Assembly: GCA_001780275.1 (NCBI GenBank) | Contig: MFGB01000016.1 | Span: forward strand, 92,161-156,160 | Direction: 5' to 3' | Source: Candidatus Falkowbacteria bacterium RIFOXYA2_FULL_47_19 | GTDB lineage: Bacteria; Patescibacteriota; Patescibacteriia; Patescibacteriales; UBA12075 | DNA: 64,000 bases | Shown here: positions 4,142-62,538 of the stretch, piece after piece | Layout: the number at the start of each line of letters is the position of its first letter | How positions within the stretch are numbered: the stretch's first letter is position 1 | Position numbers and translations under genes: made by a program | Notes under the pieces: model-generated | Told to the model about the DNA's origin: nothing | What the model saw: only the letters and a program-made list of their open reading frames with translations | Databases searched by the model: none

Positions 4142-4290
4142 TGATCGCGATCGCCTCGGTGACAGTGTATACCTATTTTATGGTATATACGATAATTTTC
4201 TTGTCCTCTTAAAAAGCGAAGGCGAAATAAACGGCTCCGACAGGGATAAAATATCGATTTTGTTCCTTCCGGGGCCGTTTTTCTTTTTAT

Positions 4291-6283: not shown

Positions 6284-6325
6284 ATAGGCATTAGGTATTA
6301 GGCATTAGGCATTAGGCATTAGGCA
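6284..6325. repeat. Tandem heptamer array (TTAGGCA) x6
   Basis: ataggca ttaggta ttaggca x4. It ends 11 bp before the ATG at 6337, just downstream of a TGgTATAAT extended -10 at 6271-6279. Confidence 0.85.
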
Positions 6326-6336
6326 TTTTAATTTTT

Positions 6337-16025: not shown

Positions 16026-17465
16026 ATGAACAAAATCCTATCCATCTTTAAAAGGAAAGATCTTTTAAAGGTTCTTCTCGTCGGCGTCGGCATTCTGGCC
16101 GGCGGCGGATTTTTTTATGCCGTAAAGGCCGATCAGATCCAATATACCTATTATTCCGATGCGGACGGCGATGGCTATGGAGTTACCTCAACCACCACCT
16201 TGGCCACGGAACCGCCCGCCGGCTATGCCCGTAACGGCGGCGATTGCGCCGATACCGTAGCCGCGATAAATCCCGGCGCGGCCGAAGTCTGCGACAATAT
16301 CGACAACGATTGCGACGGATATGTGGATGAAAATGTCCTAATCACCTATTACCGCGATTTTGACGGCGACGGTTACGGATTAACCTCGAGCACCACCCAG
16401 GCCTGCTCCGTTCCGTCCGGATATGCAACGAATCAAACGGATTGCAACGACAGCAATGCGGATATAAAACCGGGCGCGGCCGAAGCCTGCGACAATATCG
16501 ATAACGACTGCGACGGTTCGATCGACGAGAACTGCGATCTTAATACTTACTACCGGGATGCCGATAACGATACGTACGGCAATCCCGGCCAGGCCACGAC
16601 AAGCTACGGCAGCGCGCCCTCAGGATACGTCAGTAATAATAATGATTGCAATGACACGAAAGCGAATATCCATCCGAACGCGGCCGAAGCCTGCGACAAT
16701 ATCGATAACGACTGCGACGGTTCGATCGACGAGTACTGTGCCAGTATGAAAACATACTACCGCGATGCCGATGGGGATACATACGGCAATCCTTCCGTCT
16801 CCACCACGAGCTTAGAGGCTCCCTCCGGATACGTGAACAACGATCGGGACTGCAACGATACCAAGGGCAGCATCAGGCCGGGCGTGAGAGAGATCTGCGA
16901 CGGCATCGATAATAACTGCGACGGAACGGTGGACGAGAACATGGCATCGCGTACTTATTATTTCGATAACGACGCCGACGGTTTCGGTGGTACCGCCACC
17001 ACCAGCGACTGCCGGCTTCCATTGGGATACGTAACGAACAATAAGGATTGCAACGATTCGAACCGTTTGATATACCCGGGAGCCGTTGAAGTCAAGGATA
17101 ACGTCGATAATGACTGCGACGGAAAAACCGACGAAGATGAAGCGGCGAACGCCTCGGAGATCTGCCCATATTTAGGCGATAACCGCCTCGGTACTTTCGT
17201 GAGCTGCGTGAATCATTACCTTAACAAACTCAAGGCGGAAGGCGAACTCGAGAATCCGGAGAAAGCCAGGATCTTAAAGGGATTGATCCAGAAGATCAAA
17301 GAGGTAATAAAGACGGAGAAAGTTGAAGATAAGGCCGAAAAAAAAGAGATAAAAAAGGAAATTAAGGATAAAAAAGAGGAAATAAGCGGGATAAGGGGAG
17401 GGATCAAGGATTTGAAAGAAAAATTTTCCGGCAGTTTTAAAAAGAAAGGGTCCTGCGGAGAATAG
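16026..17465 (+). CDS. Secreted/membrane-anchored protein with six tandem MopE-like Cys-rich putative metal-binding repeats and a Lys/Glu-rich C-terminus
   Basis: An N-terminal signal/anchor is followed by 6 repeats of YYRDADGDGYG...DCND...I.PGA.E.CDNIDNDCDG.IDE (about 68 aa each). An exact 54-bp DNA repeat occurs at 16476-16529 and 16680-16733. Confidence 0.7.
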   Translation: MNKILSIFKRKDLLKVLLVGVGILAGGGFFYAVKADQIQYTYYSDADGDGYGVTSTTTLATEPPAGYARNGGDCADTVAAINPGAAEVCDNIDNDCDGYVDENVLITYYRDFDGDGYGLTSSTTQACSVPSGYATNQTDCNDSNADIKPGAAEACDNIDNDCDGSIDENCDLNTYYRDADNDTYGNPGQATTSYGSAPSGYVSNNNDCNDTKANIHPNAAEACDNIDNDCDGSIDEYCASMKTYYRDADGDTYGNPSVSTTSLEAPSGYVNNDRDCNDTKGSIRPGVREICDGIDNNCDGTVDENMASRTYYFDNDADGFGGTATTSDCRLPLGYVTNNKDCNDSNRLIYPGAVEVKDNVDNDCDGKTDEDEAANASEICPYLGDNRLGTFVSCVNHYLNKLKAEGELENPEKARILKGLIQKIKEVIKTEKVEDKAEKKEIKKEIKDKKEEISGIRGGIKDLKEKFSGSFKKKGSCGE

Positions 17466-25082: not shown

Positions 25083-25206
25083 AACATAAATAAATTTTTA
25101 TAAACTTTAATTTATTACGGCTGGGTAGTAACCCCGCAAAATTTGAGGCGCAGGGATCGCGTTTCGATCCTTCTCAAATTTGACGTGGGGGCCGTAGGCA
25201 AGAAAC

Positions 25207-26397: not shown

Positions 26398-26516
26398 AGA
26401 TTAGATACAGGGTCCCTCTTTTTAAGAGGGGGATCCGCACCTAATTTTTAATTATTGGTTATTAGTCAATTAGTTAAACGGACAATAATTGTTAACTTAA
26501 CTAAAACGCACATAAC

Positions 26517-29191: not shown

Positions 29192-29282
29192 TGATTTACG
29201 ATTTGCGGTTGAATATTTCAAATAAGCCAATCCAAAAAAAAGTAGTAATACGCGATTTAATTGACGATTTGCGGTTGATATA

Positions 29283-29317
29283 CAATCGGCAATCGCCAAT
29301 CGGCAATCGCCAATCCA
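29283..29317. repeat. Tandem heptamer array CAATCGG/CAATCGC (14-mer x2.5) immediately upstream of rplB
   Basis: caatcgg caatcgc caatcgg caatcgc caatcca. It ends 3 nt before the rplB ATG at 29321. The spacer also holds 17-bp direct repeats (acgatttgcggttga at 29198 and 29263) and 13-bp direct repeats (gccaatccaaaaa). Confidence 0.85.
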
Positions 29318-29320
29318 AAA

Positions 29321-33380: not shown

Positions 33381-33415
33381 CGTTATGCGTTACGCGTTAT
33401 GCGTTACGCGTTATG
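33381..33415. repeat. Tandem heptamer array CGTTATG/CGTTACG (14-mer x2.5) upstream of rplX
   Basis: cgttatg cgttacg cgttatg cgttacg cgttatg. It ends 15 nt before the rplX ATG at 33431, overlapping the SD region. Confidence 0.85.
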
Positions 33416-34596: not shown

Positions 34597-35010
34597 ATGA
34601 CTGATCCTATTTCTGACATGCTTACAAGAATTAGAAACGCTGCCTTAATCGGTAAACCGGAGGTATTGGTGCCTATGAGCAAAATAAAACACGAGATCGC
34701 CAAACTTCTGAAAAAAGAAGGGCTGATTTTGGATGAAGAAATAGTGAAAACCAAGAGCCGTAAGAACAAAGCTTCGCAATTCGATGAGATCAAGTTAGTT
34801 TTGAAATACAAGAAGAGCGGCCGGTCGGCCATAACAAGCCTAAAGAGAATCAGCAAACCAGGTCTTAAGGTGTACGCCAAGAAGACCGAACTGCCGAGAG
34901 TATTGAATAATCTGGGTATAGCGATAATTTCGACACCGGAGGGCCTTATGACCAATAAAGAGGCCAGAAAAAAAGGTTTGGGCGGAGAGGTTTTGTGCGA
35001 AATATATTAA
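34597..35010 (+). CDS. rpsH: 30S ribosomal protein S8
   Basis: MTDPISDMLTRIRNA... Confidence 0.95.
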   Translation: MTDPISDMLTRIRNAALIGKPEVLVPMSKIKHEIAKLLKKEGLILDEEIVKTKSRKNKASQFDEIKLVLKYKKSGRSAITSLKRISKPGLKVYAKKTELPRVLNNLGIAIISTPEGLMTNKEARKKGLGGEVLCEIY

Positions 35011-35045
35011 TAGGTTATAGGGATTAGGGAATAGGGATTAGGATA
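35011..35045. repeat. Tandem G-rich heptamer array TAGGGAT/TAGGGAA between rpsH and rplF, with a partially complementary C-rich segment downstream (35055-35076)
   Basis: taggtta tagggat tagggaa tagggat taggata. The downstream cctctaatccccaaccccctaa is an imperfect reverse complement, so the two can form a long hairpin. Three G3 tracts sit on 4-nt loops. Confidence 0.8.
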
Positions 35046-35084
35046 CGTTTTAACCTCTAATCCCCAACCCCCTAAGCAACACAT

Positions 35085-35624
35085 ATGTCAAGATTAGGAA
35101 AACTACCAATTAAATTACCGCAGGGTACCGAGGCGAAGATAGAGAATGGTTTTATTTTTGTAAAAAGCGGCAAGGGGGAATTAAAGCAGAAACTCTCCGA
35201 TCTGGCCCAGGTCGAGATCGGCGAAGAAGGGATAAAAGTAAGCGTCAAAAATCCGGAAGTGAAGAAAGAAAGAGCTTTTTGGGGACTTTTCCGCAGTCTT
35301 ATAAATAATATGGTTATCGGTCTTAACGATGGCTTCGAGAAGAAGCTGGAAGTGGTCGGCGTCGGATTCCGCGTGAATGTCAGCGGCAATAAGCTTAATT
35401 TGAGTCTCGGTTTTTCCCATCCGGTAGAATTTATTTTGCCGGAAGGAATCACGGCCACGGTCGAAGCTAATATTATTACCGTTAAGGGCGTGGATAAGCA
35501 GCTTGTTGGCGAAACCGCCGCTAAGATCAGGAAAATAAAGAAACCGGAGCCTTATAAGGGCAAAGGAATAAAATATGTTGATGAAGTGATCAGAAGGAAA
35601 GAAGGAAAAACGGCCGCTAAGTAA
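35085..35624 (+). CDS. rplF: 50S ribosomal protein L6
   Basis: MSRLGKLPIKLP... Confidence 0.95.
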   Translation: MSRLGKLPIKLPQGTEAKIENGFIFVKSGKGELKQKLSDLAQVEIGEEGIKVSVKNPEVKKERAFWGLFRSLINNMVIGLNDGFEKKLEVVGVGFRVNVSGNKLNLSLGFSHPVEFILPEGITATVEANIITVKGVDKQLVGETAAKIRKIKKPEPYKGKGIKYVDEVIRRKEGKTAAK

Positions 35625-35645
35625 AAAAGATCGTTGTAATTTAAA

Positions 35646-35668
35646 ATTTAGTTTAGGATTTAGAATTT
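35646..35668. repeat. Degenerate heptamer array (ATTTAGT TTAGGAT TTAGAAT) abutting the start codon of the TlyA-like gene
   Basis: Three 7-nt units with a TTAG(G) core. The ATG at 35670 follows directly. Confidence 0.55.
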
Positions 35669-35669
35669 A

Positions 35670-36266
35670 ATGGAGAGGGATAGCGAAAAAAATGATTACC
35701 AATATGTTGGTCGCGGGGCTTTAAAGCTGAAACACGCCTTAGAACATTTCCGTGTTGACGTCAGGGATAAAACGGCCGCCGACCTGGGGTGTTCGACCGG
35801 TGGATTTACGGAAGTGCTCCTGGAAAAAGGGGCCCGTAAAGTATACGCGGTCGATACGGCTTACGGGCAGCTGGACTGGAAACTTCGGAAAGATGATCGG
35901 GTGGCAGTAATGGAAAGGACGAACGCGCTTCACGCGGAACTGGAAGAAAAGGTCGATCTGGTGGTCATAGACGCCGGCTGGACCGCGCAAAAATTGATCA
36001 TACCGAAAGCCATGGAGCTCCTTAAGGCGCAAGGAGACATAATTTCCCTTGTTAAGCCGCATTACGAAGCTAAGCGCTACGGTCTGGTTTTTAAGGGAAA
36101 AAAATTAACAGCGGAAGAAAGCAGGCGGATACTCGAATCTGTTTTAGAAGATCTGGAAAAAGCTGGTTTTAAAATCAATCTATATACCACCTCTCCGGTT
36201 ACCGGGGAAAAAGGGAAAAATATCGAATATCTTGTATGGATCAACAAAAAAGAAAAAAAACAATAA
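35670..36266 (+). CDS. TlyA-family rRNA 2'-O-methyltransferase (FtsJ-like fold) lacking the N-terminal S4 domain; embedded in the spc operon
   Basis: GRGALKLKHALEHFRVDVRDKTAADLGCSTGGFTEVLLEKGARKVYAVDTAYGQLDWKLRKDDRV matches the TlyA SAM-binding core. Confidence 0.7.
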   Translation: MERDSEKNDYQYVGRGALKLKHALEHFRVDVRDKTAADLGCSTGGFTEVLLEKGARKVYAVDTAYGQLDWKLRKDDRVAVMERTNALHAELEEKVDLVVIDAGWTAQKLIIPKAMELLKAQGDIISLVKPHYEAKRYGLVFKGKKLTAEESRRILESVLEDLEKAGFKINLYTTSPVTGEKGKNIEYLVWINKKEKKQ

Positions 36267-36604
36267 AAACGAGGAAACACGCTAAGATCAGGGCCAAGAT
36301 CCGCGGGATAGAATCACGCGTCAGGCTAAGCATCTTCCGGTCTAACCGGGGATTTTACGTCCAGGTGATCGATGATCGCGAAGGCAAAACCTTAGTATCC
36401 GCGCATAGCCAGGAAATAAAAGGCGTAGAAGATAAGGATAGAAGCGGCAAGACAGCCGTCGGTTTTGCCGTGGGCAAGCTTATCGCCAAGAAAGCCTTGG
36501 AGAAAAAAATAGAAAAAGTGGTTTTTGACCGGGGCGGAAATAAATATCATGGACGGGTCAAGGCGGTAGCTGACGGCGCGCGCGAGGGCGGATTAAAGTT
36601 TTAA
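36236..36604 (+). CDS. rplR: 50S ribosomal protein L18
   Basis: RAKIRGIESRVRLSIFRSNRGFYVQVIDD... The ORF overlaps the 3' end of the TlyA-like gene by 31 nt. Confidence 0.85.
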   Translation: MDQQKRKKTIKTRKHAKIRAKIRGIESRVRLSIFRSNRGFYVQVIDDREGKTLVSAHSQEIKGVEDKDRSGKTAVGFAVGKLIAKKALEKKIEKVVFDRGGNKYHGRVKAVADGAREGGLKF

Positions 36605-39172: not shown

Positions 39173-39199
39173 TCCGGCCCAACGGCCGGTTTTTGTTTT
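39173..39199 (+). terminator. Rho-independent terminator after secY
   Basis: ccggcc-caac-ggccgg followed by tttttgtttt. Confidence 0.6.
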
Positions 39200-39336
39200 A
39201 TAGTAATCATATAAAAAACTTTTTTATAATTTACCGTAGATACTGCCATTAGCGGAAGCCAGCGGAGAGTGTTAGTATTTTTTTAAAAAGTATTGTATAA
39301 TAAATTTACATTAGAATTTATAATTTATAAAAATTT

Positions 39337-40200
39337 ATGAAGAAAAAGATAATTTATCTTTTTATTATTTTATCGTTGCCGATTTTGTTTTCGGCTTGTT
39401 CCCGGGTAACTTCGATCGAGAAGGAGGGCGCTCCGGAGCTAAAGAAGATCAGGATTTCCGGATCAGGATCGGGTTTGAATATATTAAGCTCGGTAATAGA
39501 GCTTTTTAAAGAGGATAACCCGGACATTAAAATCGAGATCTTGCCCGGTACCGGCACGGGCGAAGGGATTATCGGTGTGGACCAGGGAGTCCTGGATATT
39601 TGTTTGGGCGCCAGAGAAATGAACGAAGAAGAAAGGGGGAAATACCCCGACCTGACGGAATCGACGTTCGTTCTAGATGCCATGGTCTTAACTATCCACA
39701 ATTCACAGAGCATAGATAATTTAAGCAAAGAGAATATTGTCGATATTTTTTCCGGACGGATAAATAATTGGAAAGAACTCGGGGGCAATGACGCCGAGAT
39801 AGTAATACTCGATCGGGAGGAAAGCGAATCCAGCAAGCTTTTGTTGAGAAAATACATCCTGGGCGAAGATCTGGAGGTAGATAAGGACGCGGTATTGATC
39901 CACAGCGCGGCATCGATGGACGAAGCGCTTGAATTATCGGTTAACGCCATGGGCCAAACCTCTTTAGGGATGATAAAATACAAAAAATTACCGGTCAAAG
40001 CTTTGTCTATAGACGGAATTTCGCCCAACGAAGAAACGGTAAGGAGCGGCAGCTACGAGATGGTCCGTCGGTACGGCATAATATATGATCAGGTCAAGTT
40101 GACCCCGGAGGCAGAGAAATTGATCGATTATCTTCATAGTCCGGAGGTAAAGAGCGCGTTAAGTTCATTCGGGTTTTTCCCGGAAGATGACGAATTATGA
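39337..40200 (+). CDS. Lipoprotein, periplasmic-binding-protein fold (PstS/phosphate-binding-like substrate-binding domain)
   Basis: A lipobox (LFSAC) and PBP type-2 motifs (ISGSGSGLN ... LPGTGTGEGI). The promoter is TGTATAAT at about 39294. Confidence 0.6.
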   Translation: MKKKIIYLFIILSLPILFSACSRVTSIEKEGAPELKKIRISGSGSGLNILSSVIELFKEDNPDIKIEILPGTGTGEGIIGVDQGVLDICLGAREMNEEERGKYPDLTESTFVLDAMVLTIHNSQSIDNLSKENIVDIFSGRINNWKELGGNDAEIVILDREESESSKLLLRKYILGEDLEVDKDAVLIHSAASMDEALELSVNAMGQTSLGMIKYKKLPVKALSIDGISPNEETVRSGSYEMVRRYGIIYDQVKLTPEAEKLIDYLHSPEVKSALSSFGFFPEDDEL

Positions 40201-41177
40201 AATTCAAGATATTCCACAAGATAATCGTCAGTTTTTTATCGCTGATCCTTTTATTTACCGGGGCGATATCGTACGTGATTTATAACACGAAAACGACATT
40301 TGAAGAGGTTGAAAGAAATACGGAGCTCGTACACGGTATTTACGAGCTGACCATAGTTTTGCATCAGCTATCAAACGTTACTAAGGACTACACTCTCAAC
40401 AGGGAAAAAGGAACGGCCGAAGGATTAAGAAGCATGTGGGTGAATTATTTTTATAAGATGAATTCAGCCTTGGAATATCTTAAGGATAATGGATCATATC
40501 CGGAAGCGGTCGGTTTGATCGAAGAAAATATATTGATCGTCAATAATAACGTCGATATGGTGGTCGATATCAATGCTCTTTTGTCGGTTACTTCGGACGA
40601 GGGCAAAAAGGAAGAGCTTATTAAAGAGCGGGAAAACGCGTTGGGCGAGCTTAATGTCCTGCAGAAAAAGATCTCCGGTATAGTCGAGAATGTCAACGCG
40701 GAGGCGGAAGAGGAATACCACCTGTCCATGCGCAGGAACCAGGATATTATCACGGCCGCTTATTATATATTCATGTTCGTGATCATTCTCTCGTTCATCC
40801 TGGCGGTGCTTATCTCTTATTCGATATCGATCCCGATACATAAGCTCTATAAAGGCACGGAGGCGATCGAAAAGGGGAATTTAGATTTTAAAGTAGGCAC
40901 GGACGCCGGCGACGAGATCGGCCAACTGTCACGTTCTTTCGACAAGATGGTATCGGCCTTCAAGAAATCCCTGCAAAAAATAGAATCGCAGAACAGGACC
41001 CTGGACGAAGAAGTGAAAATAAGGACAAAAGAACTCGATGAAAAGAATAAAGAGCTTGAGCGGACACTGGAAGATTTTTATACTATCCGTTTGGGCATGC
41101 AAAGAGATCTGGAAAAAGGAACCGTCAGCGAGGAAAATAAAAAAATAAGGGAAAGGCTGGATAAGCTCAAAAGGTAA
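40197..41177 (+). CDS. Membrane protein with periplasmic domain, HAMP domain and C-terminal coiled coil; no kinase or MCP output domain
   Basis: Two TM helices flank a periplasmic region of about 150 aa. A HAMP domain (IHKLYKGTEAIEKGNLDFKVGTDAGDEIGQLSRSFDKMV) is followed by about 80 aa of coiled coil. The start overlaps the upstream lipoprotein gene (ATGA). Confidence 0.6.
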   Translation: MKFKIFHKIIVSFLSLILLFTGAISYVIYNTKTTFEEVERNTELVHGIYELTIVLHQLSNVTKDYTLNREKGTAEGLRSMWVNYFYKMNSALEYLKDNGSYPEAVGLIEENILIVNNNVDMVVDINALLSVTSDEGKKEELIKERENALGELNVLQKKISGIVENVNAEAEEEYHLSMRRNQDIITAAYYIFMFVIILSFILAVLISYSISIPIHKLYKGTEAIEKGNLDFKVGTDAGDEIGQLSRSFDKMVSAFKKSLQKIESQNRTLDEEVKIRTKELDEKNKELERTLEDFYTIRLGMQRDLEKGTVSEENKKIRERLDKLKR

Positions 41178-54672: not shown

Positions 54673-54673
54673 C

Positions 54674-54701
54674 GCGTAACGTGGAACGCGTAACTCATAA
54701 C
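54674..54701. repeat. Heptamer array GCGTAAC GTGGAAC GCGTAAC TCATAAC immediately after the asnS stop
   Basis: Four 7-nt units that share the ...AAC ending. Confidence 0.6.
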
Positions 54702-54730
54702 ATTTGTTTTTGCGATTATTAAATTTTTTT

Positions 54731-54756
54731 GTCATTCCCGCGCAAGCGGGAATGAC
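54731..54756. promoter_or_regulatory. Perfect 11-bp stem hairpin with GCAA (GNRA) tetraloop
   Basis: gtcattcccgc-gcaa-gcgggaatgac. T-run upstream, A-rich downstream. Confidence 0.7.
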
Positions 54757-54788
54757 AAATTATAAAAATTATTAATAAAAATAATTAT

Positions 54789-62421: not shown

Positions 62422-62538
62422 TAATTACAAATACACCAATCAAAACACAAATTCACAAATGCCGCACTAACATGTCCGTTGAATATTTGTGATTTAATTC
62501 GTGAATTCGTGATCTTATTGTGAATTCGTAATCCATTT

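Follow-up and report, generated by a model that had tools for sequence, protein, structure and literature searches.

A heptanucleotide-repeat palindrome in the rpsH-rplF spacer of a Candidatus Falkowbacteria genome and its place among period-7 arrays of Patescibacteria

Layout of the rpsH-rplF spacer

We analysed a 64 kb stretch of DNA that its L6 protein places in Candidatus Falkowbacteria, a member of the Patescibacteria or candidate phyla radiation (CPR), and focused on the spacer between the ribosomal protein genes rpsH and rplF. This stretch is called the window below, and all coordinates are window positions unless another locus is named. The spacer carries a G-rich tandem array with a 7-nt unit, followed by a C-rich inverted copy, and the two together very probably represent one member of a class of heptamer-repeat palindromes. 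By sequence reading, 74 nt separate the two cistrons, and the features of the locus are as follows (L007 is a relative described further below; MFE, minimum free energy; ORF, open reading frame).

34597..35010, + strand: rpsH (ribosomal protein S8), upstream cistron; ORF with a Pfam Ribosomal_S8 match (E 1.7e-45); stop codon TAA at 35008-35010
35014..35042, + strand: 5' hairpin arm with the G-rich heptamer array; base-paired in the MFE structure; 0 substitutions compared with L007
35043..35053, + strand: A/T-rich apical region, the 11-nt gap ATACGTTTTAA; partly folded, in the MFE structure, into a weak apical helix that includes G·U pairs
35054..35077, + strand: 3' arm of the hairpin; C-rich degenerate inverted copy of the array, CCTCTAA-TCCCCAA-CCCCCTAA-GC; detected as inverted repeats and paired in the folds of both strands
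35078..35084, + strand: unpaired 7-nt tail AACACAT preceding the rplF start; no Shine-Dalgarno motif
35085..35624, + strand: rplF (ribosomal protein L6), downstream cistron; ORF with a Pfam Ribosomal_L6 match (E 3.9e-30); ATG at 35085

The array reads TAGGGAT-TAGGGAA-TAGGGAT-TAGG (TAGGGATTAGGGAATAGGGATTAGG), occupies 35018-35042 and starts 7 nt past the rpsH stop codon. When the units are written in the GGG-first phase they become GGGATTA, GGGAATA and GGGATTA, that is, a G3 tract plus a 4-nt A/T spacer. A first-pass annotation, made from the sequence alone, had recognized this array, with its three G3 tracts, flanking GG and 4-nt spacers, and sequence reading bears out the description (G3 tracts at 35020-22, 35027-29 and 35034-36, separated by 4-nt A/T spacers; GG at 35014-15 and 35041-42), except that the end had been set at 35044, 2 nt too far. 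Tandem Repeats Finder (TRF) assigned the array a period of 7, with 3.6 copies and 88% matches. The annotation had also pointed to an imperfect reverse complement about 10 nt downstream, and this is indeed present after a gap of 11 nt: the inverted copy CCTCTAATCCCCAACCCCCTAA corresponds to 35054-35075, with 9 nt between its end and the rplF ATG. A repeat search resolved the complementarity into inverted pairs with identities of 77-100%, namely 35027-41 with 35057-71 (15 nt, 80%), 35024-36 with 35063-75 (13 nt, 77%) and 35020-27 with 35057-64 (8 nt, 100%).

Four period-7 arrays of at least 3.5 copies were found in the window, compared with none in 40 dinucleotide-preserving shuffles, and at periods 5, 6 or 8-10 the window contained no array with that many copies. 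The tandem array exceeds chance and is a heptanucleotide long simple sequence repeat.

Folding of the spacer

The roughly 20-bp imperfect hairpin that had been proposed between rpsH and rplF is supported by folding, which predicts 21-23 bp, and the identity of both flanking genes is confirmed by Pfam. The sense RNA folds into an interrupted hairpin of 23 pairs that spans 35014-35077 (-20.6 kcal/mol), and the antisense RNA into a more regular hairpin of 21 pairs (-26.5 kcal/mol). When compared with mononucleotide shuffles, the z-scores were -3.4 for the sense and -4.8 for the antisense strand; with dinucleotide shuffles they were -1.35 and -2.3, respectively. Since the hairpin taken alone is only weakly above chance in thermodynamic terms, its reality has to be judged comparatively.

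Some further observations concern the surroundings of the rplF start codon. The 8-mer GATTAGGA is found twice, once as the last array unit (35036-35043) and once in rplF codons 3-5 (35092-35099), and in a 191-nt fold CCUAA (35071-75) pairs with UUAGG (35094-98) around the AUG. We do not consider the match between array and rplF to be meaningful, as an 8-mer recurring within 131 nt is close to chance expectation and the same codons are present in relatives that have no array. Most genes of the window lack a Shine-Dalgarno motif; their upstream regions are A/T-rich, many of them ending in CAT or AAT at the ATG, and a minority carry a GGAGG-like motif. The AGGGA and AGGA motifs of the array were rejected as Shine-Dalgarno sequences, given their distance of 43-65 nt from the downstream ATG and the lack of such a motif in most window genes.

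Comparison with relatives

L007 shares about 92-95% DNA identity with the window and is 15.7% diverged at 4-fold sites. Its spacer carries the element with 4 differences in 74 nt, all of them within the 17 nt that make up the loop and the tail. These are a change of TA to CG at 35044-35045 in the loop, a 1-nt insertion after 35077 at the outer edge of the 3' arm, and a change of C35080 to T in the tail. The arms show no change in 57 nt (0/57 versus 4/17, Fisher p ~0.002 by our own calculation). Because the coding DNA flanking the element shows 6-7 differences per 100 nt between the window and L007, the element is not part of a recent recombination tract.

A homologous element is found at the orthologous position in L002, whose L6 protein is 73% identical, and it aligns with that of the window through ATTAGGAT..TTTTAACC(C)TCTAAT. 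Its arm units, ATTAGTG and ATTAGTA, pair with TAATTAAC and TAATCAAC, the units having changed in concert, and the hairpin is kept without any G tract. Out of 20 predicted pairs, three have changed on both sides with pairing preserved (G-C to U-A or A-U) and four are broken. Conservation of the pairing, for which the first-pass annotation had suggested a covariation check, is therefore seen in the two relatives that have the element, with identical arms in L007 and three compensatory changes in L002; most others lack the element. Relatives with the same S8-L6 order and short spacers of 17-30 nt that lack the element include L081 (78% L6 identity), L001 (74%), and L083 and L084 (71%). Most other relatives with this gene order have spacers of 3-30 nt, again without the element. 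Unrelated lineages (L034, L019, L025, L100, L105, L091 and L120) have repeat palindromes of their own in the S8-L6 spacer.

This distribution does not support the proposal that the spacer holds a dedicated control or processing element of the spc operon: near relatives with identical gene order do with 17-30 nt spacers that lack it, an outcome that the first-pass annotation had itself named as refuting. Rfam was also empty: there were no matches at gathering thresholds in the whole window, and a search of 34950-35150 at E-values of up to 10 returned only sub-threshold matches to microRNA precursors on the minus strand, as would any generic hairpin.

We found no second copy of the element core in the window or in 160 loci. 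Regarding variation within the population, 24 contigs from several samples carry the same protein, and the spacer was identical in 8 out of 8 loci retrieved, 7 of which were identical across S8-L6. The retrieved loci appear to be one clonal population and are therefore uninformative about copy-number polymorphism.

Beyond the element, the alignable spacers of the window and L007 (25016-36700) differ by 4.8%. The corresponding values are ~6.5% for coding DNA as a whole and 15.7% for 4-fold sites, so that the operon spacers of this lineage are under unusual constraint unless replaced outright. A larger difference between the two genomes lies immediately downstream of secY and its terminator, where the window has a segment of ~2 kb (39200-41175) and L007 has ~70 nt in its place. 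The genes of this segment encode a PBP_like_2 solute-binding protein (39337-40200) and a HAMP-domain protein (40197-41177).

Period-7 arrays and palindromes across the clade

What had been missed in the first-pass annotation is that the window holds at least six heptamer arrays including this one, which is an instance of a clade-wide habit. The other five, all detected with TRF, are the following.

6285..6327, + strand: TAGGCAT x6.1; one base different from TAGGGAT; stops 9 nt short of the ATG for an ABC-2 transporter
29283..29315, + strand: CAATCGG/CAATCGC x4.7 in the rplW-rplB spacer; inverted partner CGATTTGCGGTTGA at 29265-29278; ends 5 nt before the rplB ATG
33381..33415, + strand: CGTTATG/CGTTACG, about 5 units, just upstream of rplX; sense spacer fold z -6.95
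35638..35669, + strand: AATTTAG x4.9; fills the spacer between rplF and an FtsJ-like methyltransferase gene; the spacer is unrelated in L007
55675..55728, + strand: AAAATGC x7.9; starts 1 nt past a stop codon and ends 6 nt before an ATG (55735)

All five are found in spacers or 5' leaders, with 0-9 nt between the array and the following start codon, and none of them has G tracts. Pfam identified the genes around the 29265..29315 element as those for L23 and L2. Within its 64 kb, the window holds one array of the TAGGGAT type and one of TAGGCAT.

In 616 kb of loci from Falkowbacteria, Buchananbacteria and Patescibacteria we counted 85 period-7 arrays, compared with 27, 32 and 22 arrays at periods 6, 8 and 9, respectively; the remaining 828 kb of fetched sequence contained 17 period-7 arrays. 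When metagenome loci were added (161 sequences), period 7 accounted for 160 of about 326 intergenic arrays. The great majority of intergenic arrays with called genes on both sides (71 of 78) sit between co-oriented genes, and the distance from the upstream stop codon to the array, or from the array to the downstream start codon, is typically 0-12 nt. A reverse-complement partner, defined as a match of at least 11/14 within 120 nt, was found for 29 of the 44 arrays with a GC content of at least 0.25, compared with 3 in each of the reverse-only and complement-only controls. Folding of 23 partnered spacers revealed a recurring design of array, A/T-rich loop and inverted array, and the median fold z was -3.7 for array-bearing spacers versus -2.4 for long co-oriented spacers without arrays. 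We did not see a general order in which the G-rich arm comes first, as arrays near a stop codon were G>C in 20 cases and C>G in 30. Period-7 arrays and array palindromes thus form a class that occupies the spacers between cistrons in Falkowbacteria, Buchananbacteria and related Patescibacteria.

Members of this class change quickly. The array-bearing spacers rplW-rplB and rplF-ftsJ cannot be aligned between the window and L007, and several sister arrays contain perfect 14-nt super-periods according to TRF, a pattern that fits local duplication. Given that the element is absent in most relatives and that the neighbouring array spacers were replaced in L007, the class is fast-evolving and dispensable, although the rpsH-rplF member has persisted. 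The rplW-rplB spacer of the window holds a 129-nt CGATTTG/CAATCGC palindrome (29192-29320), and the corresponding spacer of L007 is an unrelated one of 47 nt (4183-4228 of that locus). A similar CGATTTC/AATCGNC element occupies the rplW-rplB spacer of L002 (3763-3860 of that locus), a far more distant relative.

Some arms recur between spacers. CGATTTN/NAAATCG arms are re-used in at least four spacers of L002, and a related element lies upstream of rplB in the window. In the Buchananbacteria loci L034 and L021, six elements located in different spacers align over their arms, loop and ends, and we therefore regard them as one dispersed family. Their common design is (GTAGTGA)n, the loop AAATTTAAAAATAATTCTA, (CTACNCA)n and then CTAATAAT. 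The members are:

L034: 6640-6742, 8497-8580 and 2740-2815
L021: 6314-6403, 10925-11020 and 11610-11679

Other features of the window were noted along the way. Structured spacers without period-7 arrays are found at 25083-25206, 26398-26516, 54673-54788 and 62422-62538 (z -3.4 to -5.2, mononucleotide shuffles); the last of these folds much better on the antisense strand and contains the 19-nt repeat ATTCGTGATCTAATTCGTGA at 62485-62533. A 204-nt tandem repeat (1.9 copies, 79% matches) at 16440-16834 lies inside the ORF 16026-17465, whose protein has five Cu-binding_MopE 'putative metal-binding motif' repeats. The FtsJ-like methyltransferase gene (35670-36266; Pfam FtsJ, E 2.4e-32) sits between rplF and rplR in the ribosomal-protein operon, and its end overlaps the rplR ORF (36236-36604) by 31 nt, an arrangement also seen in the population contigs.

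Interpretation

On balance, we favour the view that the element is a heptanucleotide repeat palindrome that acts as a tolerated, self-folding insert and not as a dedicated regulator. Arrays of this kind would arise and change by replication slippage, and the inverted partner may arise, or stay matched, via intrastrand template switching and/or selection. Because it lies inside a long operon with no promoter or terminator nearby, the element is probably co-transcribed with the ribosomal-protein genes and folded in the mRNA, where it would form the imperfect hairpin of 21-23 bp. Such a hairpin would loop out ~64 of the 74 spacer nucleotides, so that 3 nt would separate it from the rpsH UAA and 7 nt from the rplF AUG. 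Stop and start would then be about as close as in relatives with spacers of 15-30 nt, and the nucleotides next to the AUG would be unpaired. The insert would be tolerated, and its arms constrained, because only an insert that folds on itself should avoid disturbing rplF initiation or coupling. The element may in addition influence mRNA stability, processing or how strongly the two genes are coupled, but such an effect is unproven and would be modest and secondary.

Several results weigh against this explanation. The sense fold alone is not significantly better than dinucleotide shuffles, and its z-score falls from -1.35 to -0.36 in a 191-nt context. The alignable spacers of the window and L007 are all conserved, with 45 of 934 nt differing (4.8%), and on that baseline the absence of changes in the 57 arm positions reaches only p ~0.06. 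Across these spacers, paired positions do not evolve more slowly than unpaired ones (21/508 versus 24/426, p 0.29). Strand-neutral scoring of 134 spacer palindromes gave 143 G·U mismatches in the sense orientation versus 164 A·C, and thus no RNA-type wobble signature; in structured RNAs, G·U is normally far more frequent than A·C. The idea that folding would keep stop and start close to each other derives from the anatomy of the spacer only. Finally, slippage explains the growth of tandem arrays, but it does not by itself explain the dominance of period 7 or the origin of the inverted arms.

As G·U is not in excess over A·C, the complementarity may arise and persist at the DNA level. Raw MFE was lower on the antisense strand in 18 of the 23 array spacers, whereas z-scores were alike on both strands. 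We considered an antisense-strand RNA as an explanation and rejected it, since the similar z-scores and the G·U and A·C counts suggest that the difference in raw MFE is an effect of composition. Another candidate that we rejected was a 'stop codon in all three frames' trap, which a TAG every 7 nt could provide; arrays with stop codons in all frames numbered 48 in the sense and 55 in the antisense orientation.

An alternative that we regard as doubtful, though worth serious weighing, is that of a selected cis-acting hairpin in the polycistronic spc mRNA, serving as a processing site for RNase III or another enzyme, as a stem that protects the upstream part of the mRNA, or in rpsH-rplF translational coupling. 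It would account for arms that remain unchanged in L007 while loop and tail change, for the three compensatory pairs in L002 and for a hairpin base positioned 3 nt past the stop and 7 nt before the start. Local structure should also matter for initiation because most genes lack a Shine-Dalgarno motif, and long co-oriented spacers of the clade are generally structured whether or not they contain arrays (median z -3.7 with arrays, -2.4 without). However, the element is missing from most relatives with the same gene order, including L081 and L001 at 74-78% L6 identity, and neighbours of the same class have been gained or lost between 94%-identical genomes. The class shows no surplus of G·U over A·C, the two strands fold with equal significance, and no Rfam family matches. 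In a broader version, the heptad palindromes of the clade could be an undescribed functional system, either mRNA hairpins that set coupling or processing in genomes poor in Shine-Dalgarno motifs, or a REP-like family (REP, repetitive extragenic palindromic) spread by an unknown enzyme whose footprint sets the 7-nt period, with the rpsH-rplF element as a selected member; we consider this unlikely.

We hold it quite improbable that the element is a palindromic dispersed element of the REP type or of the type of miniature inverted-repeat transposable elements, copied as DNA into spacers by an unknown enzyme and with an incidental RNA fold. The dispersed family of L034 and L021, whose six elements share arms, loop and ends in different spacers, would fit such a process, as would the re-use of CGATTTN/NAAATCG arms in at least four spacers of L002, with a related element at rplB in the window and an unrelated spacer in L007; mismatch types are likewise strand-symmetric. 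The rpsH-rplF core, in contrast, has no second copy in the window or in the 160 loci. No transposase gene and no gene resembling a REP-associated tyrosine transposase (RAYT) was seen in these partial genomes. The L002 copy, at the orthologous position and with diverged units, fits vertical descent with repeat turnover in situ, and the perfect 14-nt super-periods point to local duplication.

The first-pass annotation had further raised a G-quadruplex (G4) on the G-rich strand and an i-motif on the C-rich strand as alternatives to the hairpin, and a switch of this kind, competing with the hairpin to control expression, is very unlikely. The three G3 and two GG tracts satisfy a two-tetrad pattern with a borderline G4Hunter score of 1.24, and similar GGGAATC repeats form G4 in vitro (PMC4692102). 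However, both canonical patterns fail, that of four G3 tracts with only three G3 runs in the array and that of four C3 tracts with C runs of CC, CCCC and CCCCC. The repeats of Xanthomonas and Nostoc prefer four units, against 3.6 units and three G3 tracts here, and RNA i-motifs are unstable according to the discussion in the same paper (PMC4692102). The complementary partner 11 nt away favours a duplex (-20.6 kcal/mol) that should out-compete a two-tetrad G4, and the L002 homologue keeps the hairpin although it has no G tracts, none of these C runs and a G4Hunter score of 0.32. G tracts are also missing from the window's other heptamer arrays. In this clade the sequence of the unit changes between spacers and between genomes, so that G-richness is incidental. 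Just as implausible is an intrinsic terminator or attenuator, or an autoregulatory binding site for S8 or L6, a reading suggested by a hairpin inside a ribosomal-protein operon and by the role of S8 as repressor of the spc operon in E. coli, but largely refuted by the absence of the element from most relatives, with the E. coli site lying at the start of rplE and not downstream of rpsH, no Rfam leader family, AACACAUAUG in place of a U tract after the stem, and no terminator-like or promoter-like site in a scan of 35011-35084 (a canonical GC stem with U tract follows secY at 39174-39189).

Implications

By itself, this repeat-derived hairpin is of minor importance, and most relatives lack it. 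More can be gained from the wider pattern: the phylum has small, compact genomes and has received little study, and about one in two of the intergenic tandem repeats seen here has period 7. As the arrays are usually paired into hairpins, lie flush with stop or start codons and turn over quickly, they offer a clean natural data set for two old questions, namely why bacteria favour heptanucleotide repeats and what purpose inverted heptamer arrays, first noted in Xanthomonas, may serve. Annotators should be cautious as well, and compare relatives before they interpret a hairpin in a CPR ribosomal-protein operon as a conserved regulatory leader or a G4 switch.

Relation to known repeat systems

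Full-text literature searches that included a Patescibacteria/CPR term returned no description of such arrays in that phylum. Several repeat systems of other bacteria resemble the element. REP sequences and bacterial interspersed mosaic elements (BIME) of Enterobacteria and Pseudomonas are imperfect palindromes in transcribed intercistronic or 3' regions, present in hundreds of near-identical copies and linked to RAYT transposases. Like the element described here, they can be found in one relative and missing from another, and they can work as hairpins in the mRNA. In contrast, REP arms are not internally periodic, and neither a large set of near-identical copies nor a link to RAYT was seen for the present element in the sequences covered.

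The TAACTGA heptamers of marine Beggiatoaceae, cyanobacteria and Bacteroidetes are direct repeats located upstream of start codons, with putative translational roles (MacGregor, 2015; PMC4679880). They resemble the present arrays in lying a few nucleotides upstream of starts, including those in ribosomal-protein operons, and in preceding genes that mostly lack a Shine-Dalgarno motif. They differ in that a single unit is used throughout and nearly all repeats are direct, with one inverted case, whereas many units and common inverted partners are found here. According to the summaries given in later papers (PMC4679880, PMC4692102), Mrazek, Guo and Shah (2007) found that among the long simple repeats of bacteria heptanucleotides are the most abundant, and they proposed an origin by polymerase slippage. 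On that account, their repeats share with ours the dominance of period 7 among long simple repeats, intergenic location, sporadic occurrence, variability and attribution to slippage. The survey predates CPR genomes, and the summaries do not describe an array combined with an inverted array flush with stop or start.

Finally, Rehm et al (2015; PLoS One, PMC4692102) described heptamer repeats between co-oriented ORFs, with the units GGGAATC in Xanthomonas and GGGGA(C/T)T in Nostoc. These are G-rich on the sense strand after stop codons or on the antisense strand before ORFs, occur as 70-75 convergent inverted pairs per Xanthomonas genome and form G4 in vitro, and no function was found for them. 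The element described here differs in its host phylum, Patescibacteria, in having three G3 tracts where four are preferred in the repeats that form G4 in vitro, and apparently in number, with one array of the exact unit in 64 kb compared with ~180 per genome. It agrees with them in its 7-nt unit of a G3 tract and a 4-nt A/T-rich spacer (GGGAATA/GGGATTA here, GGGAATC there), and in its position between co-oriented ORFs with an inverted array able to form a stem-loop. The two may also be alike in that length and sequence vary between close relatives, and they share their orientation, G-rich on the sense strand after a stop codon (here 7 nt past that of rpsH) and arranged as a convergent inverted pair.

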